A stretch of DNA of 64,000 bases from an uncultured Rubripirellula sp. (lineage in GTDB: Bacteria; Planctomycetota; Planctomycetia; Pirellulales; Pirellulaceae), in NCBI GenBank assembly GCA_938075415.1, contig CALJHC010000026.1, positions 180,039 to 244,038 of the forward strand, read 5' to 3'. Every line of letters starts with the position of its first letter. The first letter of the stretch is position 1. The notes beneath the pieces were generated by a model. It searched no databases and had not been told where the DNA came from. It worked only from the letters and a program-made list of their open reading frames with translations. Both the position numbers and the translations under genes were made by a program. Positions 42,052 through 64,000 of this stretch are shown here, piece after piece.

Positions 42052-45000
42052 TTATTTGACTGGTGGAGGGTCCACGTCGTTTGCATCAACAGGTGGCGAG
42101 TCAAAGAGGTCAGGTGAGTTCGTCCGTCCTTTTTTGAAGGCCTGCTCGACTTGCGTGTAGTTTTGCATCATTGCTTCGAGCTGCGTTTGCAGCTTATCGA
42201 GGTCCCGACCGTTATCAAGTGATTCGGAAAGGATCGGACGCAGCCACTCTTGCATCAGGTGGAATTGTCCCTTCACCAAATCAGCCAGAACGCGAGGTAC
42301 TTTGTGTTGAACAAGCACCCGTTGTTGTGGAGGATCGGTGACTTGTTGCATCGCAATCTTTTCAAGTTCTTTTGATGTCTGGTGAAGCGATTCGGTCAGT
42401 TGCTCTGCGGATTGACTGACGCTCTGGCGGAGTTGTTCGACGCGATCATCCATTCGTTGTTCGGTGTCATGGGTGCCCGTCGCAATCGCTCGCGAAATGA
42501 CTTGCCGAATCGACTCGAGACCGTCTCGCATCGAAGCAAGTTGCCGCATGAATTGCCCCGCCTGATCTGAGCTGTCCATGCCAGCCATTCGCACGTTTTC
42601 GACGAAGGCGTACTTGATGGCATCCCAACGCTCTTTTTCGTCAGCTGTGATGATGCCCAGTAATTCTTTGAACTTGAGGACGTTTGCTTCGTTGTCAGTC
42701 GTCAGTGTTTGTGCATCTTGTTCGTAGGTGCTGATAATCAGCAATTGCAACTCGGACTCGTTCATCACGGACGCGACACGCTCCGCGATGCGATTCATAT
42801 TTCGATAACTTCCCTGCAGCTTGAAGGGAGGTTCGGTTCGATAGTGATCTGCTTGAGCAGCACTTTGGATGTAAGCTCGATTCACCTTGAGGACAACATC
42901 ACGAACCCGAAGCAATTTTCGCATCACTTCAAACATTTCGCGCACTTGGTCCATCGAAAAGCGTGATTGAAGTTCGAGGCCGTCCATCGAATCTCGTTCC
43001 GCCGCTTGGATCACGCTTCGAGCATCTGCGGGCGACGCTGTTGCAAGCGGCGCGAGACTAGCGTTGCTGGACAGGCAGTTTTCCAGATAGCTCATTTCGA
43101 ACGCTTCGGCAGAATCACCGATGATCTCACCCAAATTATAGACATCCGCTCGATTGGAGAGCATGTCAGGGACTTGGAATCGATCACCACTTTCCGTGTA
43201 GGGGTTTCCGGCCATCACCACCGCAACGCGGCGGCCTCGTAAGTCAAAGGTCCGGGTGCGTCCATTTCGCACGCCTTCGATCTTGCGGGTGGCATCACAT
43301 AGTGAAATGAACTTTTGAAGGAATTCAGGATTGGTGTGCTGAATGTCATCAACATAAAGCATCACGTTGTCACCCATTTCGAGTGCCAGGTTAAGGCGTT
43401 CCACCTCTTCCCTGGCTGCCGCGTTTGGAGCTTCATCCGGGTCAAGTGATGTGACCGAGTGCCCGAGTGCAGGGCCGTTGATTTTCATAAACACGATGCC
43501 AAGCCGGTTGGCCACGTATTCCATCAGGGTCGTTTTTCCGTAGCCGGGCGGTGAAATCAGTAGTAGTAGGCCCATGCGGTCCGTTCGCTTGTTATCACCC
43601 GATGCGCCCATCTGCTTCGCTAGGTTGTCTCCGATCAGCGGTAGGTAGACTTCATCCAAAAGCCGGTTTCGAACAAAGCTGGTCAGTACCCGAGGTTTGA
43701 ATTCATCAAGTCGCATGGAATGCCTTGCAGAATCCACGAGCTCAGATTTTGTTTGGTGAAGTTGTCTGAATCTAGGAACGTCCTGAGATCGATAAGAGCC
43801 GACTCGTTTCAGGATTTCGTGATAGTGCAGCGCCAGATCACCACGATTAATCACCGAGTGATTGCCCGCAAGGGAGGTTAGGGTTCTGGCAATTTCAACG
43901 TCAATCGGCTTGGAGTTGTTGGCACCACCACGGCAAACAAGCCAAGCCAGTTCGTCCCGGTAACCAGCAGCAAGATCAATTGATGGGCCGGAATGGTGAT
44001 TGTTGAGGAAAGCATCGATCCAGTTTCTGGCGAGGATAAATGCACGTTTGGGGTCCGCTTCCGCCTTCAGTACTTTTGTGAGCAGTTTCTCTCGTTCCGT
44101 TTCAGGCACTGAGCCAATGAATTCATTGTAAAGGTTGGCTGCCCGCTTGCTGACAACGAGTCGTTTGGTTGTCTGAGTCAGGTAGTCGAAAAGGTAATCC
44201 GCAATTGCGTTCTGGTTAATCTCCTTTTCAAACAGGGGTCGCCATTGATCGCCGTCATTGGCAGCGAGTTCCGTCAGCCGGCTGCGAAATTCAACTGCGG
44301 GTTTGGCGTTGGGATAAGCTTTGGCGAGTTTGGCGAAACCGCCGATCCAGTCCGTCATGACCTTGCGATTCTTGGCGTCAAGAATCGAATTGAACCAAAG
44401 GTTTCCGGCACTTCGCACCGAGGGTGGATGCTTTAGCATTCCAATGGAATGATGAATTTCCAGCAGGGTTGTTAATATCTTGAACGCGTCTTCGTCATGG
44501 ACACCCTTGGCATAGCCTTCCTCAAAACGACCACCCATTTGCTTTTGAACCCATCCGAGCGAGATCTCAGTGGAGGGTTGTTTCACCTCGGGACTGGTCA
44601 ATTGCTGGAAAAGTTCAACCGCAAGGTACTCACCGCGATAGACCGATGTGTTTTCGCTAACAAGTTCTTGAGTCCATAGATCGCGAGCGTCTGTGAGGTG
44701 CTGATTCTCGAGGGGTTCAAAAAACTGTGTCCCGGTGAGGTGCAGGCAGATTTCGCCCTCGCGAAGGACGGTGGTGAGGTCGAGCGCTTGGGTGTTGACC
44801 GCAAAACGATGCTTGCCAAGTCGAATTAGATCTCCGCCATCCTCATAAAGTTCTTGGCGATCTTTCAGTTGTCGAGTCGCATCCTCTCGAATGGTTTTCA
44901 CCCGACTTTGCAAGTCTTCAACTCGGACTGCATCCTCGAGTTGCTCGAGTTGCGCCATGATGTCTCTGACTTTTTCAACCATCAAGTCGCTGGCGAAGTA

Positions 45001-47355
45001 GGCTGCGATCTCGTCGGTCGTCTCCATTTTTCCGACGCGAGATTCGATCCCTTTGAGAATCCGGTTGGCGGCGGCGGTCAGTGATTCAGCGCGGCGATTG
45101 CGTTTTTCAATCAGGGCGACTTTTCGCGATTCAAACGCTGCGTAGACTTCTTCTCGACGTTGGGCAAGTTGGACAACGAAATCATCGAATTCCGCAAATC
45201 GTCCCTCAAGTTCCTCAATTTGAACCATGAGTTTGGTCAGGTAGTCATCGCAGCGTTGTGGTGAGTCGGATACATCGAGGTAGCCTGAGGTTGTCTGCTC
45301 AAGCAATTTTAATTGTGATGCAAATTCTGCCTGTCCTTCAACGCTGAGCAGTTCAGTGGTGCGAGCCTTCAGGGAACTTCGAACCCGATTCAATGACGCA
45401 AAGACGTCACCAATGGAATCAATGATGCCGGTTCGTTTGTTGGTGTCCTCAATTTTCAGATTACTAACCGTCTCAGTCAGTAACTCCAGATCTTGCCCAC
45501 TCTGTTCAATTGCTTTTTCAAGCTTTTTGGCTGCTGATACTGACTCGACCTCGGCAATGCTTTCAGAAATGGACTGAACCTTCTCTGAGTAAGGCTGCAA
45601 AGCAGTTGGATTCAGGAGAAACTCAACACATCGATGACTGAGACGATCAGAATGTTCGGCGGTTGACGTTTCTAGCGTCTCAATCAACTCCTCATCTGCG
45701 TATTTAAGTTCTCTGAGACCAATTGCGTGTCCACGCTGCTCTCGAAGTTGCGCGAGCGAGGAGACAAAATCACCGATAGCCTCGAAGCGACTTCGCTCTA
45801 TGGTTTTCAGAAGTTTACCAATGGTTTTCTGAACTTCATTGGTTCGCTGTTCGGTGTCACGCCGTAGACGAACCACTTTTTCGAATTCTTCAACCGCGGC
45901 GCTGGATGCGTCCCGAATACGGCTGAGAGGTTCAGAAAGCTTTTCGATTTCCTCTTTGTCAATCCAGAAGTAACTATCCAAAAGGTCACTGGTTTTACGC
46001 ACAAGATCGAGGTAAAGATCTTCGTAACTATCGTCCTTGTCGATAAGCTGAATGACTTCATTGCATTCCGCCATTCCGCCGACGATTTCTTTGTTGCCTA
46101 TCTTGAAGAGAAACGAGTCGGTTTGGTTATCGGAGACGTAATCAGAGCCGGTGAAAGGGGTTTGCCATATTTGAATAGCGTGATGCTTCTGAGGGTCATC
46201 TTGCCCCCGAAAACAGACCATTTCACCTCCCTCGAAAAACGTCTGTCCGTGGCAGACCAAGGGTGCGTCAACGGTTTGCCGGATTAGGTTGTAGCGAAGC
46301 TGGACATAGGTTCCCGATTCGGGGTTGTAGAACAGGTAGAGATAGTCCTCGCCGTTGGGTGAAGCGATGGTGCGTTGGTATCGCATGTCGCTCAGACCGT
46401 GTTCAAACCGTTTGAATTCGCCCGTTTGAAGGTAATATCCACCGGGGAAAATCAATCCATGATCGTTTGGCAGCATGACGCAAGCGTTCTCAATATCATC
46501 AAGACGCATTGCCTGCTGGATTTTTCCATTGAAAATCAAGTAACGGAAATCTGATTCCAGATAGGGTCGGATTTTCATCAGGACGAGATTGCCAACGATC
46601 GCATAATGGATCTCGGCATCGTCGAGTTGTTGGTCTGAGTTGTCGACCGACTCGGCATAGATCCCTTCGCCCGTTTCGGTATTGTTTTCAACCTTGATGG
46701 TGAGGTCACCGCCGACAGTTTCAACAAAGACTCGATCTTCGATCGAGATGTGTGGGTGTGCACCGTAATGGTGTTGATCACGGGTGGTCTTATTCCATCT
46801 GAATTCATGCTGAGCTGGATCGCGAACTTCATGTTCACTTCGGTTGTCGATGTATTCGATGGAATCGACGCCCATCCGCCATTTGAATGATTTGATGTCT
46901 TTGCTGGTTTTTCCAACTTGGAAAACCATGTGAAGCATCGGTCCGATACGAAAGAATCTTGAAAAGCGAGTGTTTTTGTAGAAGCGGTAAAGCTCGTTGA
47001 AGTCACTGGCAAATTGCTGATCACCGATTAGATCAAGCGGTAGATGGTGGAACTGACCTTCGTCGAAGCGATAGGTGGAAAAAACATCTGAGAGGTTGAT
47101 TTCGGTTTTCAGCCCAAATTGGACGTTGTACCCAAACAGGAATTGGTCACCGACAGAAACAATGTCACGCGGTACGCAGTTATGCTCGGTGTTGACTCGC
47201 TCGGTCGCGACCAGAGACGTATCGATGTTCCCGAAAACCTCAGCCCGGGATTCATTCAGTCGGCCGAGTCGGGCGCGCAGATCTTTCGCGGCCTCTCGCA
47301 ACCGATTGCGTAAGACTTCGTAGGTTCCAGCCGCGAGCGTTTTTGATTCCGTCAT
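42052..47355 (-). CDS. Giant (1767 aa) cytoplasmic coiled-coil protein with an AAA+ (AAA_5/MoxR/dynein-like) ATPase core; function unknown
   Basis: One uninterrupted ORF. Walker A LLLLISPPGYGKTTLMEYVANRLG (encoded around 43500-43560). Walker B NVMLYVDDIQH. Sensor-1-like VAVVMAGNP. Sensor-2/arginine region SNRADVYNL. Two long heptad-rich E/L/K/R segments lie either side of the ATPase. A beta-rich N-terminal region of about 450 aa. No signal peptide or TM. Confidence 0.8.
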   Translation of the reverse strand: MTESKTLAAGTYEVLRNRLREAAKDLRARLGRLNESRAEVFGNIDTSLVATERVNTEHNCVPRDIVSVGDQFLFGYNVQFGLKTEINLSDVFSTYRFDEGQFHHLPLDLIGDQQFASDFNELYRFYKNTRFSRFFRIGPMLHMVFQVGKTSKDIKSFKWRMGVDSIEYIDNRSEHEVRDPAQHEFRWNKTTRDQHHYGAHPHISIEDRVFVETVGGDLTIKVENNTETGEGIYAESVDNSDQQLDDAEIHYAIVGNLVLMKIRPYLESDFRYLIFNGKIQQAMRLDDIENACVMLPNDHGLIFPGGYYLQTGEFKRFEHGLSDMRYQRTIASPNGEDYLYLFYNPESGTYVQLRYNLIRQTVDAPLVCHGQTFFEGGEMVCFRGQDDPQKHHAIQIWQTPFTGSDYVSDNQTDSFLFKIGNKEIVGGMAECNEVIQLIDKDDSYEDLYLDLVRKTSDLLDSYFWIDKEEIEKLSEPLSRIRDASSAAVEEFEKVVRLRRDTEQRTNEVQKTIGKLLKTIERSRFEAIGDFVSSLAQLREQRGHAIGLRELKYADEELIETLETSTAEHSDRLSHRCVEFLLNPTALQPYSEKVQSISESIAEVESVSAAKKLEKAIEQSGQDLELLTETVSNLKIEDTNKRTGIIDSIGDVFASLNRVRSSLKARTTELLSVEGQAEFASQLKLLEQTTSGYLDVSDSPQRCDDYLTKLMVQIEELEGRFAEFDDFVVQLAQRREEVYAAFESRKVALIEKRNRRAESLTAAANRILKGIESRVGKMETTDEIAAYFASDLMVEKVRDIMAQLEQLEDAVRVEDLQSRVKTIREDATRQLKDRQELYEDGGDLIRLGKHRFAVNTQALDLTTVLREGEICLHLTGTQFFEPLENQHLTDARDLWTQELVSENTSVYRGEYLAVELFQQLTSPEVKQPSTEISLGWVQKQMGGRFEEGYAKGVHDEDAFKILTTLLEIHHSIGMLKHPPSVRSAGNLWFNSILDAKNRKVMTDWIGGFAKLAKAYPNAKPAVEFRSRLTELAANDGDQWRPLFEKEINQNAIADYLFDYLTQTTKRLVVSKRAANLYNEFIGSVPETEREKLLTKVLKAEADPKRAFILARNWIDAFLNNHHSGPSIDLAAGYRDELAWLVCRGGANNSKPIDVEIARTLTSLAGNHSVINRGDLALHYHEILKRVGSYRSQDVPRFRQLHQTKSELVDSARHSMRLDEFKPRVLTSFVRNRLLDEVYLPLIGDNLAKQMGASGDNKRTDRMGLLLLISPPGYGKTTLMEYVANRLGIVFMKINGPALGHSVTSLDPDEAPNAAAREEVERLNLALEMGDNVMLYVDDIQHTNPEFLQKFISLCDATRKIEGVRNGRTRTFDLRGRRVAVVMAGNPYTESGDRFQVPDMLSNRADVYNLGEIIGDSAEAFEMSYLENCLSSNASLAPLATASPADARSVIQAAERDSMDGLELQSRFSMDQVREMFEVMRKLLRVRDVVLKVNRAYIQSAAQADHYRTEPPFKLQGSYRNMNRIAERVASVMNESELQLLIISTYEQDAQTLTTDNEANVLKFKELLGIITADEKERWDAIKYAFVENVRMAGMDSSDQAGQFMRQLASMRDGLESIRQVISRAIATGTHDTEQRMDDRVEQLRQSVSQSAEQLTESLHQTSKELEKIAMQQVTDPPQQRVLVQHKVPRVLADLVKGQFHLMQEWLRPILSESLDNGRDLDKLQTQLEAMMQNYTQVEQAFKKGRTNSPDLFDSPPVDANDVDPPPVK

Positions 47356-47500
47356 GATGTCCGTTTGTTCGGCGGCAACCGCTTGAGAGCAGTTGAAGTC
47401 ATGCCACTACCATTGCTTCACTTGCCGTGGAAGCGATGGTTGTCTGAGCACCATGGCGTCCGACGGCAGAATCGTTAGCAATATTTCGAGTCAAGTCTTC

Positions 47501-47536
47501 GAAGTTCAAGTCGAAGTTCAACTTGAAATTCAGCCT
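47501..47536. repeat. 12-bp tandem direct repeat, 3 copies (GAAGTTCAAGTC / GAAGTTCAACTT / GAAATTCAGCCT)
   Basis: Read directly. It lies immediately 3' of the flotillin stop codon and about 145 bp upstream of the start of the giant ATPase gene. Contains a TTCGAA/TTCAAG-CTTGAA local palindrome. Confidence 0.75.
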
Positions 47537-49674
47537 CACTGGGTTGGCTTTGCTTTCGCTGCGGGCAGGCTTCCGCCTTGCGTCAGCAGTTTCCCTACCC
47601 TCTGGTCGGCAACGTTGGCGGTTCCCGCAATGCTCAGCAAGCTGGCAAGTTGACTACGGATCTCGTTGGTGTCAGCGAGTCCGAGTAGCTTCGCAATCAA
47701 CGCCGCGATGGAGAGGTCTTTCACTCCATCGGTATCAAGGTTGAACTGGGTGATGAGCTCATTGAGTTGGTCTTTGAAGTACTCAGCATTACCATCGAAG
47801 AACGTTTCTTTGATATCGGTAGCGACTTTACTGTTGTAAACAAATCGGTCGATGGCTTTACCGCCTTTGACAGCGGAGGTGATCTGGTCAAAGAATTCAC
47901 CGTCACCGCCAACGATATCGATGCGAGCCGCTTTGAGTGCATCCCCAACCACGCCAGCTTGGCTTTCTGCGATCCCTCGTTGGGCGTCAATTGCAGCGAT
48001 TTCAACTTCTTTTTCCTTGTCCAGCTGCAGCTTGAACTCTTCGTGATCTTTTCCAACGCCATCGAGTTTCTTCATGGCTTCTGCTTTCTCGGTGATACCA
48101 TCCGCTTCGCTTCGGTATTTCTCTCGAGAGACATTTGCTTCGGCCAAACCCTGTTTTTGGACGGCATCGGCTTTGGCTTCGATACCTTTCGCTTCGGCAA
48201 CGGCTTTTTTCTGCAGGACAGACGCCTCGGCGGTACCTTCTTTTTCAAGGCTGGTGGCTTTGGCTTCCTGCACGGTCGCTTCGGCTAGGCCTTCAGCGGC
48301 TGACTTTGCCGCATCAGCTTCGGCGAGCATTTTTGTTGCAGCCGTATCTTTTTCTGCGGCGTCGCGTCTGGCTTCCGCTTCGATGCGAATTTTTTCGGCC
48401 AGTAATTCGCTGGCATCTTTTTCAGCCTGGGCAAGCTTTGTCTGGCGAATCAGTTCTTCTTCGGCACGCATCTGGGCCGCGGTGACCTGCACCTTCTTGA
48501 GACGATCGGCAGCAGCAATTTCTTCGGTGTCTTTGATCCGCTCCTGTTCTTCAACCACGGCGCGTTCAACAGCAACTCTCTCGCGAATCACTTCCTGAAT
48601 GTTTCGCTTTTCAACTTCGATCGCTTTTTCTTTCTCGACATCAGCGACACCGACGACACGCAGCCGTTCCGTCATCTCAAGATCCCGATCTCGCTCAACT
48701 CGTTGGACTTCGACGGCATCGGTTTTTTCCTTGTTACGCATCGCGACAAGGACTTGGCGTGATTTGTTTTCCTCAGCAACACCGAGTTCTTCCTCGGTGA
48801 CGATTCTTGCTCTTTCGGATTCCAGTCGTTGCTCTTCCTCGACCTTCTTCGCGGCAGCCCGCTCGCGGGCCGAAATCTCGGTGATTTCGCGTTGCTGCTT
48901 TTCTACCGCTTCTACCCGTTGCCGTTCCAACGCGAGGATGGTTTCCTCCGCTTCGACATCCTGTTTTTTGAGTGTCTTCTCTTTATCACGCGTGAATTGG
49001 TTCTCTTTTACCTTTTCCGTCGCGGTTAACTCAGTGATTTTCTTGATTCCTTCCGCGTCCAGGATGTTCGAGGGACTCAGCATCTCAAGTGGGGTTTGCT
49101 CGAGGTAGTCGATCGCGGCATCGTCAAGCCGATAACCATTGAGATCCGTACCGATGACTTTTAGTATTTCTACTTTGAATTTGTCTCGTTGGTCATAAAG
49201 ATCAACAAAGTCAAATTGCTTACCAACGGTTTTCAACGCTTCGCTAAATTTTGCATCAAAAAGTTCTCTGAGTGTTTCAATTTCGCTACAGCGTCTTGCT
49301 CCGATCGACTGCGCAACCTCTTTCATCTCTTCCTGCGTGTTATCAACGCGGATGAAAAAGGCCACTTTGATGTCGGCTCGAATATTGTCTCGACAGATGA
49401 GACCTTCACTTCCCTGTCGGCTGATTTCAAAGCTCTTCAGCGTCAGGTCCATGAATTCATATCGATGGAAGAGAGGTACAATGAATTTGCCCCCTGCGGT
49501 GGTCACGTCCAGACCACCTAAACCTGATTTCACAATCGCGCGATCAGGTCCAACCACGATGAAGTATTTTCGGAAGGTTAGTAAGGCTGAAAAAACGGCG
49601 AAAGCGATCAGGTAGATCACAATCATCCATCCGCTAGTCCAGTCAAATGCTGCGAGGGGAATCGAGAGGGTCAC
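47536..49674 (-). CDS. Flotillin family (SPFH/band-7 domain) membrane protein with an unusually long E/A/K/R coiled-coil region
   Basis: 712 aa. N-terminal TM helix (GWMIVIYLIAFAVFSALLTF). SPFH domain (VVGPDRAIVKSGLGG..., YqiK/FloT-like). About 330 aa of EA-repeat coiled coil. Flotillin-type C-terminal domain. + strand Ser/Ala-rich ORFs inside are antisense artefacts. Confidence 0.85.
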   Translation of the reverse strand: MTLSIPLAAFDWTSGWMIVIYLIAFAVFSALLTFRKYFIVVGPDRAIVKSGLGGLDVTTAGGKFIVPLFHRYEFMDLTLKSFEISRQGSEGLICRDNIRADIKVAFFIRVDNTQEEMKEVAQSIGARRCSEIETLRELFDAKFSEALKTVGKQFDFVDLYDQRDKFKVEILKVIGTDLNGYRLDDAAIDYLEQTPLEMLSPSNILDAEGIKKITELTATEKVKENQFTRDKEKTLKKQDVEAEETILALERQRVEAVEKQQREITEISARERAAAKKVEEEQRLESERARIVTEEELGVAEENKSRQVLVAMRNKEKTDAVEVQRVERDRDLEMTERLRVVGVADVEKEKAIEVEKRNIQEVIRERVAVERAVVEEQERIKDTEEIAAADRLKKVQVTAAQMRAEEELIRQTKLAQAEKDASELLAEKIRIEAEARRDAAEKDTAATKMLAEADAAKSAAEGLAEATVQEAKATSLEKEGTAEASVLQKKAVAEAKGIEAKADAVQKQGLAEANVSREKYRSEADGITEKAEAMKKLDGVGKDHEEFKLQLDKEKEVEIAAIDAQRGIAESQAGVVGDALKAARIDIVGGDGEFFDQITSAVKGGKAIDRFVYNSKVATDIKETFFDGNAEYFKDQLNELITQFNLDTDGVKDLSIAALIAKLLGLADTNEIRSQLASLLSIAGTANVADQRVGKLLTQGGSLPAAKAKPTQ

Positions 49675-50351
49675 GCCGAAGGCTCCGTTGAATGTTGAGT
49701 GACTTTGTAGATGCGTTGTTCGGGATCAAATCCGATGATGATGGCCTGTTCACCTTTGGTGATGATAGAACCATCGGTTTGGACGTTCAGCAGTAAGGGT
49801 GCTGCGTTGGTGCGGTATTTGGCTTGTCCGAATTTATCAGTTGCCTCGGAGGTCGAAATCTCACATTTCTCGCCGATCAAAGTTTCATGGTTGTAAATGG
49901 GGGGTGGGACAAAGTATCGCAGTAAGGGTTGGGTGGTGATCTTGGTCAATCCCACAGCCAATACCACGTTCCGGACCATCAAAATTAGGCTCGGTGCCCA
50001 ATCTGGGGCGTACCTTTGACTATCGAATTGATGCCAGAGTCCGTATGAAATTGCCCAAAACATGACCGTAAAAATACCACCCCACAGGATAATCGGGAGT
50101 CGGCTGAAGTTCGTCCAGCGAACTGTCATTCCACCAATTCCCTGAAGAAAATCCATATCGAATGGGATTATTTGGGTTAGGTCTGGCCCGAAGGAGGGGT
50201 CTGCATCCATTTCAGGTAGATCCAAGCCGAGATCCAGTAGGCCCAGCATGCCCAAAAGGGTGTAGACGACCAGAAGTGCTGCGAGGATGGATGCTGGCCA
50301 AACGGGACCAACCAGCATTCGTTCAGCAATTTCCAAGAAAGGTTCTGGCAT
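49671..50351 (-). CDS. NfeD/YqiJ-like membrane protein (flotillin partner; C-terminal OB-fold)
   Basis: Multi-TM N-terminal half (VWPASILAALLVVYTLLGMLGLLDLGL; ILWGGIFTVMFWAISYGLW; LILMVRNVVLAVGL). C-terminal beta-rich soluble region (GSIITKGEQAIIIGFD). Its stop overlaps the flotillin start by 4 bp. Start set at MPEPFLEIAE (ATG complement 50349-50351). The track extends to 50444. Confidence 0.65.
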   Translation of the reverse strand: MPEPFLEIAERMLVGPVWPASILAALLVVYTLLGMLGLLDLGLDLPEMDADPSFGPDLTQIIPFDMDFLQGIGGMTVRWTNFSRLPIILWGGIFTVMFWAISYGLWHQFDSQRYAPDWAPSLILMVRNVVLAVGLTKITTQPLLRYFVPPPIYNHETLIGEKCEISTSEATDKFGQAKYRTNAAPLLLNVQTDGSIITKGEQAIIIGFDPEQRIYKVTQHSTEPSA

Positions 50352-50536
50352 CTCGGTAACTCCTAATTGATCAAACAGGGGACCGCCTATGTTGTGTTCG
50401 TCTGCGATTCTGAGAAACGATTTGCAGAATGCTGCCCGCTGCAAAGTGGGCGACCCGGTTCGATGAATCCGGATCAGTCGTTGTTCTGTTCAACCTTACG
50501 TGAAAAGATTGTTCCATTAACTTGCTGAACGGCCTA

Positions 50537-52321
50537 TTAGGGCTGCTTGGCATCGGATTCTGAGTTCCACCACCATCGCTGTTGAAGTAAGGGTCTTGCC
50601 GATTGGTGGTCCACTTGCGTTTGAATCAGAGGATACTGAACTAATTGCTCTGGCAGCGTTTGCCCGGAGTCTACTGAGACTCCGCCACTTGCGAGCAGAA
50701 CGTGGTGTCTTTTGGATCCGTGTCGAACCGAATGCATGGTTCCAATCGAAGCCACTTGCCGAGGTGTCTTGAGAAGAGCCGGTGATTCCGTAGCACCATT
50801 GGTTAATATTTCGACGATTCTGGCGTGCGCAGGAGAGTCTCCGAAACGTTTGATCACTTCGGCGAGGGATGCCGCTTCATAGATCGACTCAAGGGCTCCA
50901 TAAATTGGGTAGTCTTGTCGAATAGAAACCCAATTCTGGTTAAACGATTGAACGAATGCTTTTGTTCTGGGGTCCTGCGTTATCGCACCCCGTTTGCCGC
51001 TGAGAAGAGCCCGTTCGTTCTCACTGCTAAGGCGAATCGGGGTCCCGGAGAGTTGGAAATATGTCTTCTCCTGATTGGCCCTCAGTTGTCGAGCTTCGGC
51101 GGTGAACCAGAGTCGCAGCAGTAGCTCTTGAGGTGGTCCTTGCGCAATCGCCTGATCGATTGCGTCGAGATAGTTCATCGCCGAGAGAGGCATTGGGTGT
51201 TGGCCAAGGGCAAGCTTTTTCATGTGTCGGTCCGCCTCGACCATCACATAACCAATTGGAAGATCACCTGGGATACCAAAGACCTCCACTCGCTGCATTC
51301 CTAATGCCTCCGTAAGAGCACCTGAAGCCTCTTGGATTGGGATCTGTTGCTGTTGTATCCGCTGTCCCACTTCGGCCGCCCGCTGCAAACCTTCCCTGGT
51401 TGGATCGATTGTGCATCCGTAAGGTTGTTGGAAGAATGCCGACCAAAGATTAGCTCGCAGGAAGTCCAAGCTTAGTGTGCTCTTGCCTGATTCTCGGTCT
51501 TGATACCAACCGTCCGTCTGGTCAATGCCTCCGACGGTGCCAGCGATCACAATGTCATTGGGTTCAAGAAAGATGTGTTGAATCGAAGATAATCCGGCGA
51601 GATTTCGCATCGCTTCGGAGGGAGTTAAACCTTGTTGCTGCCATCGATTCCATCTTGAGGAGAGCCTGCCGAGCGAAACAAATCGTAATCTGCTCGGGTC
51701 TTTCCATGCATTGGAACCTGACTTGCCGCGAGCCGAATTCCGCTTAGGTTCTGCTTCTTTTCGTATTGAAACATGTGTTGCTGATAGGGGCTGGCAATCA
51801 ATGATTGTGCCGGAGGCATCCACGTAAACTCCTTGCGGATAGGACGCCATGGTGCTGGGGCCGCCAAGCGATTCCCATGTATCCGGGACAACGGTCGTTT
51901 GGATCAGGTCAATCAGCATTTGGAAGTCTGCAAAGGAGCCGCCGCCGCTGGCTTGATCCATTAAATCGGCGTCGAATTGCCCAGAAGGTGCCGAGGGAAG
52001 ATAGGCATCATTTGAACCAAGGGAAGAACCTGTTGAAAAAGTTTCCAACGACAACCGTTGGTGCTGATTCATACGTCTTGTTGAAGCATCAGATGGATTT
52101 TCGGCTCTCTCAGCTGCTTGCCTTGCCATTGCAAATTCGCCGGCGTCACGGTGCGAGGTTTCTCTGCTGCCATCGTTTCCCGAGTCGCCACCGTCCTGAC
52201 CGTAAAGAATTACCGGTTCGGGAAAGCAAACCACCGGTAGCACGTTCAGGAAAGAACAAAAGAACAACACCCTTACGACCACATCGATCAGTGCTGGCGG
52301 TTGAATTACCGATTGCATCAT
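50537..52321 (-). CDS. Secreted DUF1598-like protein (paralog 1)
   Basis: 594 aa. N-terminal hydrophobic segment. Shares blocks with the ORF at 53350-54747: IQHIFLEPNDIVIAGTVGG vs IQYVFFYPDTKDIVIAGPAEG, DRHMKKLALG vs DYRMKLVGIG, and the C-terminal WWW motif (QQRWWWN vs GQWWWD). I recall a Planctomycete-restricted family (DUF1598) with this pattern, but the family name is from memory. Confidence 0.65.
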   Translation of the reverse strand: MMQSVIQPPALIDVVVRVLFFCSFLNVLPVVCFPEPVILYGQDGGDSGNDGSRETSHRDAGEFAMARQAAERAENPSDASTRRMNQHQRLSLETFSTGSSLGSNDAYLPSAPSGQFDADLMDQASGGGSFADFQMLIDLIQTTVVPDTWESLGGPSTMASYPQGVYVDASGTIIDCQPLSATHVSIRKEAEPKRNSARGKSGSNAWKDPSRLRFVSLGRLSSRWNRWQQQGLTPSEAMRNLAGLSSIQHIFLEPNDIVIAGTVGGIDQTDGWYQDRESGKSTLSLDFLRANLWSAFFQQPYGCTIDPTREGLQRAAEVGQRIQQQQIPIQEASGALTEALGMQRVEVFGIPGDLPIGYVMVEADRHMKKLALGQHPMPLSAMNYLDAIDQAIAQGPPQELLLRLWFTAEARQLRANQEKTYFQLSGTPIRLSSENERALLSGKRGAITQDPRTKAFVQSFNQNWVSIRQDYPIYGALESIYEAASLAEVIKRFGDSPAHARIVEILTNGATESPALLKTPRQVASIGTMHSVRHGSKRHHVLLASGGVSVDSGQTLPEQLVQYPLIQTQVDHQSARPLLQQRWWWNSESDAKQP

Positions 52322-53217
52322 GGATTGATTAGTTGGTTATGAGTTGATTGGGCTGAGAGGTTGTGCCTTCCCCATCCACGCCATTTTGCTCGGGGACTTC
52401 AAATCACTGCAGTGGAATAAACTGGACGGAAAAAAGGGATGGGAATGATCTGTACCGCCGACTGACGGGGTCGCACCTTATTTCTTCAGCGTCATCTCTT
52501 CAGCGTCCAGCTAATGATCCGACAAGCAGGCACATGACTCATCAGAAGGATCTTCACCCAGTGACTCTTGTTTGTGTCCTCTGGCCCTCGTTATTGAAGT
52601 GGTTTGCTCTGGGTTAACGAGTGGGTTGCGGAGTGGGCTTGCGGCCTTCATCCCTTCCCTCCGTCATTGGAATTTATCCCAAATCCACCTCAGAAGAGAA
52701 CCTTTTCACTGGTTTTTGGACATTTTAACACTTCGTCCCTGATTCCATTGGAAATTCCATGAGGGGATTTTGTCAGCCTTGACCGGAGAAAATCTGCTTA
52801 AGGCTCTCCCTCCTATTTTTTGACAAGCAGAAACGCCTGGCTATCACTTTCGATTTTTTCGTTCTCTGAGAATCTGGTCCCCGACGGTGATGATCCGAGA
52901 GATGCTCCAAAGAAACGCTTGAATGAACTTTTAGTGTTTCCCATTTTGCCATCGAAACGATGGGATGAGAGCGAATTCATGCCAGCGTTTTAAGCGGACT
53001 TAGCCGATTCAAAGTCAGGACTTGAATCGGCTAAGAGGTAACGAAGTAGGTCAGGATCGGGGGTATGACGCGGGGAAAAGTGGCCAAATGAGGTTGGTTG
53101 ATTTTCCGACCTGGTCAAAGCCCAGCGACACGTAAGGCTCAGTGATTTCAAACGTCTGGATGGGGAATCAAGGCAAACCATTTTGGAGCCCATGCGAAAG
53201 CGTATTCGGTTGCGCAC

Positions 53218-53247
53218 AAAAAAAGCGGGCCGCTTTCAGGCGGCCCG
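53218..53247 (-). terminator. Perfect 9-bp GC-rich hairpin plus U6 on the minus strand, 100 bp downstream of DUF1598 paralog 2
   Basis: The + strand reads aaaaaa-GCGGGCCGC-tttcag-GCGGCCCGC. On the minus strand it is followed by UUUUUU. Confidence 0.7.
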
Positions 53248-53349
53248 CTATCAATCTTCACTGTATTCCTCACCATCCGAACTTCATTGGGAAGCAATCC
53301 GGTGCCAAGAATCGCTGAATTTGCGGAAGCTATCCATTCGATCCGACGC

Positions 53350-54747
53350 TCAATCCCACCACCATTGTCCGGGTTCGAGACTTGATGGACCGGCAAGTTC
53401 CTTGGCCGCTTTGTTGGCTCCATCGGTATCAACTTCAACTCGACCCGATTCAAGTGCGATACGTGGTTCGACACGCACGCCGCCGCCGAGTGGTGTCATC
53501 AAAGTGTTACCCCTCCAGATTGCATTGACCGCAGTCTCGACTTGTTCAGGGGCTGTGTAGGTTTCAACGGAAACCTTTGACTCGTCCAGCAGGACCGGCA
53601 TGTTCCATTCGAGTTGACCATAAAAGTCTTGCTGCTGAATGTAGGCTGCTGCGATCGAGACGTCGATAAGTTGCCGAAGTTCGGCATAGATTCGAACGCG
53701 TTTCTGAATTGCGGTGAACTTCTTGGTGAAATCGGCACAAAACGCTTGGCTGGCTCGATTGGCTCGCCCGCTTGCGGCACGACGTCCTTCAACGACTCGC
53801 TCGTTGGCGCCAACGAGTTGAACACCACGCTCTTTGATTCGCATGGCTGTTCCATCATCGTTCACGGCGATACCGTCGTAATTGGGTTGGAAATACCAGC
53901 GTTCCATGGCGTTGGCAGCGACCGCACTTGGATTGGCTCGCTCAACATAACTTTTCACAGGAACAGGCAGTCGTTCCAATCCAATGCCGACTAACTTCAT
54001 GCGATAGTCCGCTTCAACGAGCACTCGAGCAAAGTGGGTGGAGTTGGGGATTCCCTTGAAGGTGACCGTTTGCAAACCAAGATTTTCCTTCATTCCTCGA
54101 GCAATTCGAGCCGCGTCGCTTGGGCGAGCAACCCGGCGAGCTTGCTGCATGTACCGATTCATCTGCTGCAAGCCTTCGGCCGTTGGATCAATGGAGACAC
54201 TGATCACCGAGGTTGGTTTCGTATTTGGAGCGAAGGCCCGAAGTGATGTCACCAAATCCTCGAGGAGCAGCGTGGGCTGACCCGATTCCATTCCGATCAA
54301 ACGCTCTGTTTGGTCGGCAAAGAACCCTTCGGCGGGACCAGCGATCACGATGTCTTTGGTGTCTGGATAGAAGAAGACGTACTGAATCGAGGTCAGGCCA
54401 GCAACTGCCAGGAGGTCATCACTGAGCTCCACACCGGCCTCTCTCTGAGAAACGATTGCTGCCTCAAGACGATTCAGGGAAACCTTACGTAGCTTCGAGG
54501 CTTGCATCACATTTCGATCGCCCTGAGCGCGGGCGGCTGCGAAACGCTGCTGAGCCAGCCTTGGATCGAATTGTTTGACACGCAGAACGCCCGCAGCATC
54601 GACATCAATACCGGCGATCGGGCTTCCGAGAAAGTTGGTGTCACCACCACCACCACCACCGCCGCCCTGTGCGAAACTTTCGGACAGCGGGGCGAATGCG
54701 ACGACGACGAGAGTCGAAAATGCGATGAAGCGTTGCAACGTGTTCAT
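53350..54747 (-). CDS. Secreted DUF1598-like protein (paralog 2)
   Basis: Start at MNTLQRFIAFSTLVVVAFAPLSESFAQGGGGGGGG (signal peptide followed by Gly8). Paralogous blocks with 50537-52321 (see above). The track extends to 54774. Confidence 0.65.
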   Translation of the reverse strand: MNTLQRFIAFSTLVVVAFAPLSESFAQGGGGGGGGDTNFLGSPIAGIDVDAAGVLRVKQFDPRLAQQRFAAARAQGDRNVMQASKLRKVSLNRLEAAIVSQREAGVELSDDLLAVAGLTSIQYVFFYPDTKDIVIAGPAEGFFADQTERLIGMESGQPTLLLEDLVTSLRAFAPNTKPTSVISVSIDPTAEGLQQMNRYMQQARRVARPSDAARIARGMKENLGLQTVTFKGIPNSTHFARVLVEADYRMKLVGIGLERLPVPVKSYVERANPSAVAANAMERWYFQPNYDGIAVNDDGTAMRIKERGVQLVGANERVVEGRRAASGRANRASQAFCADFTKKFTAIQKRVRIYAELRQLIDVSIAAAYIQQQDFYGQLEWNMPVLLDESKVSVETYTAPEQVETAVNAIWRGNTLMTPLGGGVRVEPRIALESGRVEVDTDGANKAAKELAGPSSLEPGQWWWD

Positions 54748-55731
54748 ATAATTGCCGCGGGTGGCTTGATTCAACTGGAAGCCGTCGCTGAGTCAATCTG
54801 CAACGTCGGCCTGACATCTAATGAAAATAATTCGACCTGTTGGTCACTACAACAAATTAGTTTCCCCCAACACGTGGCGAAACTCAAATTTGTCACATTG
54901 AGCAAATCTTTCCGATTAGGCAGTTTTAATCCTAGCATCTGGCTAATCAATCAGCTGCCCAACTAAGCCAATTTGTCTCTGAATCGGACGAGATGTTAAC
55001 GATTATCGGCAATTTTGGCTGGAAGATCAGAGGTAATTGCCGGTTTTGCTTGGTGAGCGAGTCCTAGGGACGGGAAAGGACAGCTGTGTGGTTTAGGCGA
55101 CTTGGGGCACTGCCCCGTGTGCAATGTCGCTGCCCCGTGTTATTCATCGGCACTGCCCAGTGTTGTTCATTGGCAGGGTTCTGCATTACGAATGTCAGAA
55201 GGCTTGCAATCAGCCTCGGTCCGTCTGCGAGTCATGGGCCGCCCGAGGGAGGGGGTGGGCAGCTGATCTTTTCTCGGTGAAGGCATCGGTAATGTTATTC
55301 AAGTGGAGTGATTTCCAACGATGACATTGCATGAACTTTTCGATAGTGGATCATCGACGTCACTGCCCTTTTTCCGCCTTTTGCGTCCTGAACCTTAACA
55401 GGTCTCTGCAGTTGACGGTCGCTTGAGCCACCTCGGATTTTACCGATGATGACGAGAAGATCTTCGGGTGCAATGGTTTGGGTTGGGGCTAAATCTTCGC
55501 CGGACCTTGCTTGGTTTTTGGTCGGTCGGATTTGGCTTAGCAAAGCTGGTCAGACCCGGAATTCGGCGGTTTAGTCGGGTTTTTCCTGATAATAGCTGTA
55601 TGCGGCACCTTGTATCGGGCAATCAGGCTGGTGCTTGAGATTCGCCCCCTGCCTCGTATCTGGTTATCAGCCTAGAATCCAAGATGTTGTTACTCGCGAA
55701 TGAAACCCTGATTGGATAGGAAGACAAATCG

Positions 55732-58554: not shown

Positions 58555-60534
58555 TCAGTTTTTTCTCTTGAACAAACGAGAAAGCTCTAACTCAAGTTCC
58601 GAAAATCTCAGGTCATTCCGTAGGACTCTGCCTGACGGATCGATGAGCAGCATGGCTGGGAGAGTTTGGATCCCTAAAGCTTGCGATAGGTTGCTTCCCT
58701 CCAAGCCACCTTCTTCGAATAATTGAGGCCAGTTCGTGGCCATTTGACGGACCTTTTCCCGAGGTTTCTGGATATCGATGTCAACGTTGATCCCGACGAA
58801 TTCCAGGTTTGCCCCGCGATAAGTTTTCTTCAGCTGAGCGAGTCCTTTCATGTCTTGAAGGCAGGGGTTACACCAGGTCGCCCAGTAATGAAGGATAACA
58901 ACTTTGCCACGAAGATTGGAGAGTTGAAAAGACTCTCCAGCGAGAGTCGTCCCCTGAAGATCCAGCATTTTTCCTTCGGATTCAAGTCTGCGGACCGCCC
59001 CGTTCGCTGTCTGCACACTCGAACTTTTTGGGAATTGTGCTCCCACACGTTGATACAAGGTGATTGCGTTTTGGGCTTCTCCCTCAAACTCTTGGTTAAG
59101 TGCGAGTTGCATCAGCGCCGCAGCCGATTCTGGAGCATCGGGGAAGTCCTGCACGAAGCGATCAAGTGATTCGATGTATTGTTTTTGAACCGTCCCAAAA
59201 TCGGCACCGGCTACTTGAGCGACCAGATAATTGGTGGTGATGGATTGATACTTGGCTTGGGCCATGAGGGGGGATTTCTCGTCCTCCAGTTGATTTGTCA
59301 GGGCATCCAGTCGGCTCATTGCTTCGGGGTAATCACCTGTTTGCGCCGCGATGCTGAGCATATCGATCAGTTGAAGTGTCCATGAATTTCGTTCATTAGG
59401 TTGGTTTGCTGACGCGATGAATTTCTCTAGCAGATCAGCCCTCCTTGCATTCAGTTGCGGCAACTCGTCCCGAGATGCGTTGCCGGCAAGTTGTTGGTCA
59501 ATGTTTTCGAGTTCTTGAATCAACTGCTGCGTTACATCCGACATTGCGATCGCTGAATCGGAGATCATGTTTGGAGTTGCAGGTTCAAAGAAGACACCAC
59601 TGCTGATTGGATTGGTCTGTTCGTCGGGGAAGGTGGGTAGTCCGATAAGACGCCAGGACTGATCGATGCGAATCAGTGTTCCGACGGAAATCTGCGATGT
59701 TTGCCCGGCTGATTGGAACATCGCGACGGCGTTTTCGTAAACGACCAAATCTCTCAAGGAGCCATCGGTGCCCGAGGGCACGAGTCCGGGCCGATTTGCC
59801 GCAAATTGCAGCCATTCCGAACCTGAATCGACTTGGGTTTGGCTCTCTGAAAACAGCACAAAGCCTTCCCTTGCCGCCGCCGTTTTTGCGATGATTTTTG
59901 AGTAATTCTCAGGTCCAATTCCTGATTGGCGAAGCTCCTCTTCTGAAGCCAACAAGCAGTCAAATGCTTTGAAGTTTTGATCACGTATTGCTCGGATCAG
60001 TTCAGCTGTTACCTCCTCGGCGGAGATTCGTTTCCAGTTGTCAATGACACCATCCTCATTGTCATCCAGCCCCCATCGCATCCCGTTCGTTCCCAACCAG
60101 CGGTACTGATCGGCTTTTCCGTTGAAGTCTTGGTCGATGTCTCGATAGACTTCAATACCCATTCTGAAATAGGACCAAATGTCAACTTTTTGGTCGTCGT
60201 TTGTGTCAGCGAAACGACGCAAGACGGTTCCATCAGGAGCGTTGACTTCCCATCCCGACCAACCCTCTGTTTTTATCTCCCCAACGGAGCATTGGTTTTG
60301 TTCGGACAAGGCTATTTGGTCGTGAATCACGTCTTTTTGAACGGGAGACAAAGAGAGAGCCTCGGTCGCCGTGGGCGGTGCGCCATGGGAAGGGGTAGGG
60401 GTGATGAGTAGCGCGAGAAAAATGGTGAGGCTGGTCCGAATGCACCTTGCATGATCACGACTGATCCGAGGGATGGTTCGCCCGCCGTGGGAAACGACGC
60501 AACGCTGGAAGCGGTGATGTATTTGAAGCAGCAT
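58555..60534 (-). CDS. TlpA/ResA-like thiol-disulfide oxidoreductase domain (WATWCNPC) fused to a large N-terminal domain of unknown function; secreted
   Basis: C-terminal about 160 aa have the thioredoxin-like motif VVILHYWATWCNPCLQDMKGL. The N-terminal 480 aa carry a hydrophobic signal/anchor (SLTIFLALLITPTPSHGA) and TPR-like helical content. Confidence 0.7.
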   Translation of the reverse strand: MLLQIHHRFQRCVVSHGGRTIPRISRDHARCIRTSLTIFLALLITPTPSHGAPPTATEALSLSPVQKDVIHDQIALSEQNQCSVGEIKTEGWSGWEVNAPDGTVLRRFADTNDDQKVDIWSYFRMGIEVYRDIDQDFNGKADQYRWLGTNGMRWGLDDNEDGVIDNWKRISAEEVTAELIRAIRDQNFKAFDCLLASEEELRQSGIGPENYSKIIAKTAAAREGFVLFSESQTQVDSGSEWLQFAANRPGLVPSGTDGSLRDLVVYENAVAMFQSAGQTSQISVGTLIRIDQSWRLIGLPTFPDEQTNPISSGVFFEPATPNMISDSAIAMSDVTQQLIQELENIDQQLAGNASRDELPQLNARRADLLEKFIASANQPNERNSWTLQLIDMLSIAAQTGDYPEAMSRLDALTNQLEDEKSPLMAQAKYQSITTNYLVAQVAGADFGTVQKQYIESLDRFVQDFPDAPESAAALMQLALNQEFEGEAQNAITLYQRVGAQFPKSSSVQTANGAVRRLESEGKMLDLQGTTLAGESFQLSNLRGKVVILHYWATWCNPCLQDMKGLAQLKKTYRGANLEFVGINVDIDIQKPREKVRQMATNWPQLFEEGGLEGSNLSQALGIQTLPAMLLIDPSGRVLRNDLRFSELELELSRLFKRKN

Positions 60535-61715: not shown

Positions 61716-61789
61716 GGGCGTGTAGCTCAGTTGGTTAGAGCGCGTCGCTGATAACGACGAGGTCCCAGATTCGAGTTCTGGCACGCCCA
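61716..61789 (+). tRNA. tRNA-Ile (anticodon GAT)
   Basis: GGGCGTG acceptor pairing with CACGCCC, discriminator A. Anticodon arm CGTCG-CTGATAA-CGACG. T loop AGATTCGAGTTCT. 74 nt, CCA not encoded. The position is the standard rRNA spacer-type tRNA-Ile. Confidence 0.9.
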
Positions 61790-61862
61790 CTTAAGTTTGG
61801 TTAGTGAAAATTGAATTTGGACATTGCCAAGTCGGCTTTCACATGCCAAGTTTAAGGCTTCT

Positions 61863-61935
61863 GGGGGTGTAGCTCAGTTGGGAGAGCATCTGCTTTGCAA
61901 GCAGAGGGTCGTCGGTTCAAGTCCGTCCACCTCCA
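61863..61935 (+). tRNA. tRNA-Ala (anticodon TGC)
   Basis: Acceptor GGGGGTG/CACCTCC containing the G3-U70 wobble pair that is the tRNA-Ala identity element. Anticodon arm TCTGC-TTTGCAA-GCAGA. T loop GGTTCAAGTCC. One U-U mismatch in the T stem in my fold. Confidence 0.9.
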
Positions 61936-62679
61936 CTTGATTGATGAAAAGGTTACCTAAAGCGTTGGATCGCTATTGTCTGGCGGCCTTCCTAGTTTTT
62001 CAAGCAAGCTAATTGGTCTCTGATGGATTTCGAGCGTTGCTCGGCTTGATCGAGGCGTTAGATGCTTTCCGATCGCTTCGGAAAGAAGTGTTGAGTTTTT
62101 TCGTCGAATAACGTTTTGCCTCCTTGCAAGGATGTGATTCAGATGCGAAAACCTCCGCACAGTTGGGGCAAGAAGCCGCTTCTCAAGTTTCTGAGAAAAA
62201 AGCTTCTAACTCCGCTTGACGAGAGAAAACCTCACGGTTATCTTTCGCCCCTCACTCGGGAGTAACCGAGTTGGCCCTCAAGGAGGGTCTGCTCGGCTGC
62301 TCTCCAGCAGCGTCCCTTGAGTCATGTCCACAGTGGCATTTCAAGGCTTTGATCTTTGACAATTTGGTTGTTTGGTAGTTGGCATCTGAAAAGAAAGCAG
62401 TTGCTTGTCAACAGGCGTAAGCTTGTTGGTAGGTCTGCTAACAATTTCAAAGAGCGTTGCTGTAGGGTTGCCTTTCGAGGTTGCCTGAACAGCAATTGAA
62501 TTCTGAATAGGATTCTGTGCAAGTTAATGTCGACAGGGTGGTTCACTCGTGTTCCACCGAGAAGACATTAGCTACCATGTGATATCGTTAGATAGTAGAA
62601 AATCGACGAAATAACGTTCGGATCTGATTCCGGCAAAGGTTCTCCTTTGTTGAATGAAAGACTCCGAGTTCGGGATTTC

Positions 62680-64000
<1,321 letters not shown>

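Follow-up and report, generated by a model that had tools for sequence, protein, structure and literature searches.

The 64,000-nucleotide (nt) stretch of DNA that we analysed, here called the window (uncultured Rubripirellula sp., GenBank assembly GCA_938075415.1, contig CALJHC010000026.1, positions 180,039 to 244,038 of the forward strand), contains a three-gene operon that encodes an NfeD-like membrane protein, a long flotillin-like protein and a giant cytoplasmic AAA+ ATPase of 1767 amino acids (aa). An initial annotation of this DNA, made from its letters alone, had joined these genes with two upstream DUF1598 genes into one five-gene system; we conclude that the real unit is the trio. 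Gene order across genomes argues strongly that the flotillin/NfeD pair and the giant ATPase behave as one functional unit. On the basis of sequence comparison and predicted structure, this unit probably uses ATP to remodel a membrane scaffold of the flotillin/NfeD pair when the cell copes with envelope stress.

All five open reading frames (ORFs) of the region are on the minus strand, at 42052-47355, 47536-49674, 49671-50444, 50537-52321 and 53350-54774. The features are as follows, with the basis of each call in brackets.

42052..47355, minus strand: giant cytoplasmic ATPase, 1767 aa, of the DUF3686/DUF7902/AAA family (Pfam; no transmembrane segment)
47356..47535, minus strand: spacer between the flotillin-like and giant genes, 180 nt (terminator scan)
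47536..49674, minus strand: long SPFH/flotillin-like protein, 712 aa (Pfam Band_7, hydropathy)
49671..50351, minus strand: NfeD-like membrane protein of the YqiJ/YuaF type, 226 aa from its ATG (ORF, start-site evidence, hydropathy)
50537..52321, minus strand: second DUF1598 gene, 594 aa (Pfam DUF1598)
53350..54774, minus strand: first DUF1598 gene, 474 aa (Pfam DUF1598)

The ORF list thus bears out the five co-directional genes of the initial annotation, and two further details of its layout hold. The NfeD-like and flotillin-like ORFs share 4 nt: in the sequence GCGTGACC the GTG start of the latter lies over the TGA stop of the former, and the gap of 180 nt before the giant gene is free of any minus-strand hairpin-plus-T site in our terminator scan. 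The longest ORF of the NfeD-like gene starts at a TTG (50444) and encodes 257 aa. The true start is most likely the ATG at 50351, judging from the sequence, because an AGGAG box lies 9 nt upstream and the orthologs align only from there. Within the flotillin-giant spacer (47470-47525, minus strand) CTTGAACTTCGA occurs twice in tandem, followed by the related CTTGACTCGAA; the tandem CTTGAACTTCGA repeat may be a regulatory site. An Rfam search of the region gave no match.

The trio is conserved well beyond the window. A genome scan yielded a best 80 loci among at least 584 species, and six-frame ORFs from the neighbourhoods of 82 loci were searched and clustered. By record title the 80 loci are from Bacteroidota (33), Planctomycetota (21), Verrucomicrobiota (16), Clostridia (5), Desulfobacterota (3) and Fibrobacterota (1), with one unclassified. 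In 59 of the 62 loci with at least 2.4 kb of upstream sequence, the giant gene is immediately preceded, on its own strand, by a flotillin ortholog (phmmer E-values from 6e-128 to 0), and in 55 loci an NfeD-like ortholog lies upstream of that flotillin gene. Of the 61 loci whose upstream sequence reaches at least 3.3 kb, 54 have a conserved upstream partner, a tally that also took in the cluster of PspA genes described below. The initial annotation had suggested checking whether homologs of the giant protein recurrently adjoin SPFH/NfeD genes, and across phyla they do.

The trio occurs across many Pirellulaceae genera at 65-81 % identity; in Roseimaritima and Crateriforma the trio alone is syntenic and the flanks differ. 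It is likewise present in the gammaproteobacterium Bacterioplanes, on the Pseudomonas plasmid pQBR103 and on a TARA marine-metagenome scaffold, where it has an extra short Band_7 gene. At the distant locus L085 the pair still accompanies a giant homolog whose identity is down to 26 % across the N-terminal 700 residues. A Streptomyces plasmid has an annotated flotillin gene just ahead of the giant gene, with a short gene upstream of the flotillin gene. The giant gene stands beside the flotillin/NfeD pair across the six phyla of the scan and in Gammaproteobacteria, and beside at least a flotillin gene in Actinomycetota.

The spacing between the flotillin and giant genes is not conserved, ranging from -11 to 2360 nt across loci. 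Spacers of 0.5-2.4 kb in Bacteroidota and Verrucomicrobiota hold heterogeneous small genes, among them PD-(D/E)XK_3, an IS200-like Y1 transposase, DUF559, a ParE/antitoxin pair, a DMP19-like gene and lipoproteins (Pfam scans of L024, L027, L039, L040, L045, L064 and L078; inspection by eye of L036, L050 and L077). Insertions appear to be tolerated here. We considered a conserved fourth gene in the wide spacers and ruled it out, the inserts being heterogeneous. Two other additions to the trio were seen. An extra short SPFH/Band_7 gene of about 165-185 aa lies between the NfeD-like and long flotillin genes in L084 (5322-5816) and L026 (6957-7508). In two Verrucomicrobiota loci, a gene of about 300 aa that looks coiled-coil immediately follows the giant gene (L060 15442-16353; L081 15617-16495); by eye the two have similar N-termini, and the gene may be a lineage-specific extra component.

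The DUF1598 genes, on the other hand, are unrelated, lineage-local neighbours of the trio. As first proposed, their products are paralogs (Pfam DUF1598 at 1e-18 and 3e-30; 27 % identity over 452 aa, E 7e-27). Hydropathy shows a hydrophobic segment at the N-terminus of each, all five genes are co-directional, and just 185 nt separate the end of the second DUF1598 gene from the NfeD-like start at ATG 50351, all of which would suit a five-gene scaffold-plus-motor machine with the DUF1598 proteins as its exported components. However, DUF1598 homologs lie near the trio in only two of the 82 loci, both from close Rubripirellula relatives; in one (L004) the gene is about 4 kb away and in the other (L006) it is a mere fragment at the contig edge. 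None was found in the trio neighbourhoods of Roseimaritima and Crateriforma, and the conserved clusters are limited to the trio, PspA, CesT and a helix-turn-helix (HTH) regulator. The unit is therefore three genes and not five. Moreover, the first DUF1598 gene is followed at once by the best terminator-like site of the region in our scan (53249-53224, minus strand; a 10-bp stem with 9 G-C pairs, then T7) and by about 1 kb of non-coding DNA (52322-53349), with no convincing ORF, none above 110 aa and no Rfam match, so the five genes do not form one transcription unit. The five-gene machine is largely refuted by this poor conservation and we consider it highly improbable.

Three minor observations concern these neighbours. 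The non-coding stretch at 52322-53349 is of unusual length for the window. In both paralogs three consecutive tryptophans stand at the C-terminus or close to it, as GQWWWD at the very end of one and as QQRWWWNSESDAKQP near the end of the other. The N-terminal hydrophobic segment leads directly into a run of Gly in one paralog and into a stretch rich in Gly and Asp in the other.

The partnership of an NfeD-like protein, a flotillin-like protein and a giant ATPase, which the initial annotation took to be undescribed, is already described, computationally only. Ravi et al. 2024 (PMC11237479; preprint 2020) report operons that join a CesT/Tir-PspA dyad with a Band-7/flotillin protein, a three-transmembrane (3TM) YqiJ/YuaF protein and a β-propeller/coiled-coil/AAA+ protein. 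Abbreviated three-gene forms without PspA are widespread and may work with PspA encoded elsewhere (PMC11237479). The window encodes these three proteins too, with their order and orientation unchanged. Its flotillin-like protein combines a transmembrane helix (12-36), Band_7 (40-182), an Ala/Glu-rich region (230-560) and a conserved C-terminal block. Its ATPase joins an N-terminal β-propeller (47-398) and coiled coil (415-836) to an AAA+ core (~1255-1410), and co-directional adjacency is the rule for both partners in the loci counted above. The 3TM YqiJ/YuaF type of the remaining protein is recognised through its orthologs. The CesT/Tir-PspA dyad is lacking in the window, which is a Pirellulaceae instance that differs from the operon of Ravi et al. 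in its housekeeping flanks and two DUF1598 genes, and in having no CesT/Tir, PspA or HTH gene. We conclude that the window holds an abbreviated, PspA-less form of that operon. The value of the present analysis is confirmation and quantification: the 59 of 62 loci, the homolog with 26 % identity, the MoxR-like core, and the invariant motifs including a DD Walker B.

The full context was recovered elsewhere in our own data. Clustering of the 82 loci gave three further families of note, which Pfam identifies as PspA_IM30 (2.5e-40), CesT_Tir_1 (1e-56) and a divergent HTH_3 regulator. A PspA gene adjoins the trio in 19 of the 82 loci. In 17 of these, all Bacteroidota, it shares the strand of the NfeD-like gene and lies just ahead of it; in L030 it is downstream on the opposite strand, and in one Phycisphaerae locus immediately downstream. 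The Bacteroidota loci, divergent HTH regulator included, reproduce the Dokdonia context string of Ravi et al. gene for gene. In Bacterioplanes a DUF2170-PspA arrangement precedes the trio and a rhomboid gene follows it. On pQBR103 the trio is preceded by PspA, rhomboid, DUF2491, DUF350, DUF1190 and a glutathionylspermidine-synthase-like gene, and at L085 TelA lies behind the trio. Membrane-stress genes thus stand beside the trio in distant lineages (rhomboid in Bacterioplanes and pQBR103, L083 13361-13933 and L087 424-978; TelA, L085 13001-14221). No PspA, CesT/Tir or HTH regulator gene was found within the 64-kb window. Any PspA link in this organism therefore depends on a gene elsewhere in the genome.

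The giant ATPase was modelled with AlphaFold from 69-sequence alignments, with a mean predicted local distance difference test (pLDDT) of 83 for residues 1-1150 and 80 for residues 1101-1767. Its parts are listed below.

45967..47283, minus strand: N-terminal helix and β-propeller, DUF3686, residues 25-463 (AlphaFold, Foldseek)
44848..46113, minus strand: helical/coiled-coil stalk, residues 415-836, including DUF7902 at 585-667 (Pfam, AlphaFold)
43930..44829, minus strand: middle region, residues 843-1142, a small β-domain and then a helical domain (AlphaFold)
43126..43593, minus strand: AAA+ core, approximately residues 1255-1410 (motifs)
42055..43125, minus strand: C-terminal helical region, residues 1411-1767 (alignment, AlphaFold)

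Pfam matches are DUF3686 (residues 25-463, 8e-193), DUF7902 (585-667, 2e-26) and AAA (~1264-1390, 5e-7), and hydropathy reveals no transmembrane or hydrophobic segment. The structure search proposed at the outset, in particular for the N-terminus, was run with AlphaFold and Foldseek and identifies a β-propeller: a helix (5-41) is followed by β-strands (47-398) with block-mean pLDDT mostly 80-94, and Foldseek matches generic WD40/Kelch-type propellers. A likeness of the N-terminus to membrane coats (IFT-A, clathrin, Vps11) was rejected, with query TM-scores of 0.06-0.14 and a coiled coil in place of a solenoid. Long helices at 415-836 correspond to about 400 residues of coiled coil. The middle region consists of a small β-domain (843-881) and a helical domain (907-1142); it matches no recognised family and has conserved residues such as G947, Y948, H953, D954 and D956. 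Behind the AAA+ core come lid-like helices, a conserved QGSYRNMN at about 1514-1521, long helices and a disordered Pro/Asp-rich tail.

In sets of 30 and 69 diverse homologs the AAA+ motifs do not vary. Walker A is SPPGYGKTT (residues 1268-1276) and Walker B is VDDIQH, with D1336 and D1337 (window 43345-43350) invariant in all 69 aligned homologs; N1384 is a candidate sensor-1 residue and R1402 is invariant. Most AAA+ ATPases have Asp-Glu in Walker B. The VDDIQH of the giant protein resembles the DDIQ of DnaA. The fold of the core is closest to MoxR-class structures, with CbbQ and NorQ as the best matches, and we regard the AAA+ module as MoxR-like. By sequence, the match of the window protein to AAA_5 (PF07728) is sub-threshold at 17.3 bits against a cut-off of 22. 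PF07728 is present among the precomputed domains of many giant homologs. Compared to the MoxR class (CbbQ, NorQ and the relatives dynein and midasin), the giant falls below the AAA_5 threshold, carries some 1250 residues ahead of the core, in propeller, stalk and middle domain, has a DD Walker B, and lacks a conserved VWA partner nearby: no VWA-domain protein was found in the 82-locus neighbour clusters or in the Pfam-annotated neighbourhoods.

The giant family is large. We found at least 5878 homologous proteins at E<=1e-10, in 951 representatives at 50 % identity, and the genome scan places the family in at least 584 GTDB species. The representatives are mostly 1600-1900 aa long, which shows a conserved architecture. 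Named homologs come also from Acidobacteriota, Myxococcota and Deinococcus, and carriers more accessible to experiment are Proteus mirabilis, Vibrio campbellii and the Pseudomonas fluorescens SBW25 plasmid pQBR103.

NCBI and UniRef name this family 'DNA repair ATPase' or 'ATPase involved in DNA repair', and if the name were taken at face value the adjacency to flotillin would be incidental. A weak RuvB_N match (Pfam, 9.8e-5), an NCBIfam RuvB match of 22 bits and the best Foldseek E-value, which falls on RuvB, go in that direction. Yet the NCBIfam match covers only residues 1254-1299, some 45 residues around the P-loop, at 22 bits against a cut-off of 282, and NCBIfam gave otherwise P-loop noise only. 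Pfam detected no DNA-binding family in the giant protein, a full-text literature search returned no mention of DUF3686, PF12458 or DUF7902, and the conserved neighbours, in 59 of 62 loci, are membrane proteins. The name is thus backed by this P-loop resemblance to RuvB only and is misleading; a DNA-repair role is poorly supported and hardly credible.

SPFH proteins assemble into oligomeric cages attached to the membrane, to which their NfeD partners bind. The flotillin-like protein of the window matches Band_7 over residues 40-182 (5e-11; 43.4 bits against a cut-off of 23.6) and has one N-terminal transmembrane helix (12-36), the SPFH domain (40-182), an Ala/Glu-rich helical region (~230-560) and a conserved C-terminal domain (~540-660). 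It is 77 % identical to its Roseimaritima ortholog and 40-88 % identical to 40 aligned orthologs. No flotillin-specific Pfam model matched any of 41 orthologs. Against the PDB, phmmer with the single protein gave no match and the ortholog profile gave a sole match, the QmcA chain of 8z5g (E 2e-5). QmcA-YbbJ is an SPFH-NfeD complex (cited in PMC13086221). 'Flotillin-like' is thus an architectural label, because Band_7 is the only family matched and QmcA the only structure. In the NfeD-like protein several hydrophobic segments come first, and a β-rich domain forms the C-terminal part. Among 56 orthologs, 16 match YqiJ_N (PF21001; best 3.6e-8), including that of Bacterioplanes (6e-5, above cut-off), and one matches the NfeD oligonucleotide-binding (OB) fold (PF01957, E 0.0083). 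The sole PDB match of the ortholog profile is weak, to the soluble domain of YuaF (2k14, positions 152-210, E 0.18).

The first two genes of the trio recall E. coli yqiJ-yqiK and B. subtilis yuaF-floT, where a short NfeD-type gene immediately precedes the SPFH/flotillin gene with overlapping stop and start, as in the window; the window orthologs match YqiJ_N and their profile touches YuaF. The window differs in that its flotillin is longer (712 aa), the flotillin family matches Band_7 only, the NfeD-like protein itself lacks a Pfam match, and a third gene, for the giant ATPase, is added. Such an ATPase is not known for yqiJK and yuaF-floT.

Given these partners, we propose the following mechanism. 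The NfeD-like and flotillin-like proteins would build a scaffold in the form of a ring or cage on the inner membrane, at its cytoplasmic face, like the solved SPFH complexes. The giant ATPase would oligomerise through its AAA+ module, dock through propeller and stalk on this scaffold, or on PspA polymers encoded elsewhere, and spend ATP to assemble, remodel or dismantle the scaffold under envelope or membrane stress. The intact AAA+ site, the combination of a soluble giant with two membrane partners and the recurrent linkage to PspA favour such a role. The giant is an obvious candidate for an energy-dependent step in the assembly and turnover of bacterial flotillin scaffolds and in their coupling to envelope-stress systems such as PspA.

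Several points weigh against scaffold remodelling. Three loci (L031, L032, L056) carry the giant gene without the pair, and the genes in the flotillin-giant spacer of Bacteroidota and Verrucomicrobiota are unrelated to the trio, so tight co-translation is not required. Hidden Markov models built from the neighbours detect no PspA or CesT_Tir_1 among window ORFs of at least 50 aa. Band_7, the only Pfam family matched, reaches E<=0.01 in just 5 of the 41 flotillin orthologs, and the window NfeD-like protein has no Pfam match. ATPase kinetics may be atypical, because Walker B is DD in place of the usual DE. The physical contact between ATPase and scaffold is something that we purely infer, and a literature search found no experimental work on any member of the trio; neither Hinderhofer 2009 nor the 2026 P. 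aeruginosa SPFH paper mentions the giant ATPase.

A more specific proposal, which we offer tentatively, is that the giant is a dedicated ATP-driven assembly or disassembly factor for bacterial flotillin cages and, where present, PspA polymers. It can be compared to Vps4 and ESCRT-III, which belongs with PspA, Vipp1 and Snf7 to one superfamily, since the giant AAA+ gene is genetically linked to a PspA gene in several lineages. An ESCRT-III/Vps4 analogy has been drawn for other PspA-AAA+ associations, and ESCRT-like complexes have been discussed more generally (PMC11237479). If true, the giant would be a bacterial functional counterpart of Vps4, and flotillin microdomains would gain an energy-consuming turnover cycle that is undemonstrated in any organism.

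The main rival is ATP-dependent protein quality control in a membrane microdomain, which we consider rather unlikely; the present data do not separate it from scaffold remodelling. Here the MoxR-like AAA+ protein would extract, refold or mature clients, and the scaffold would confine damaged or unfolded membrane-associated proteins, the whole being, with a similarly modest likelihood, a protease-less counterpart of HflK/C-FtsH. The best matches of the AAA+ core, CbbQ and NorQ, are MoxR chaperone-type ATPases, and in Bacterioplanes and on pQBR103 the trio has a rhomboid protease gene beside it. S. aureus FloA-NfeD reportedly stabilises unfolded proteins within microdomains (PMC11222466). HflK/C-FtsH and prohibitin-m-AAA are SPFH scaffolds with an AAA+ partner at the membrane (PMC13086221), coupled to it genetically and functionally, as the trio is in its gene order. 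However, FtsH is a membrane-anchored AAA+ protease (FtsH_ext, AAA, Peptidase_M41), whereas the giant is MoxR-like and has neither a transmembrane anchor nor a peptidase family. No VWA-type adaptor or other conserved fourth gene was seen in the neighbourhoods, and the loop after strand β2, although highly conserved, lacks the aromatic pore-loop residue typical of unfoldases.

The alternative of an anti-phage module, raised by the initial annotation, or of another conflict module finds little in its favour. Large coiled-coil NTPases are common in defence systems, and selfish small genes (PD-(D/E)XK_3, DUF559, ParE/antitoxin, IS200-like transposase) sit inside the operon at some Bacteroidota and Verrucomicrobiota loci. 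But the single PADLOC match (PADLOC-DB 2.0) is to IetA at E 0.0011 over 29 P-loop residues, with none for the other four proteins of the region. No match was found in 50,697 phage records, and only 13 of 72,556 plasmid records match, several of them multi-megabase. The flanks in the window are housekeeping genes, the trio recurs in many Pirellulaceae genera at the identities given above, and the flotillin conservation (40-88 % across 40 orthologs) is not the pattern of a patchy, fast-evolving system. A defence role is thus very unlikely and, like the five-gene reading, poorly supported.

The housekeeping genes flanking the trio encode an aldo-keto reductase, an AIR-synthase-related protein and 6-phosphogluconate dehydrogenase. 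The window closes (61716-64000) with two tRNA genes and, behind them, the first 1.3 kb, from the 5' end, of a 23S rRNA gene. Upstream, a thioredoxin/TPR protein gene is found at 58555-60534 and a 16S rRNA gene is absent, in keeping with the separate location of the 16S and 23S rRNA genes in Pirellula-type planctomycetes.

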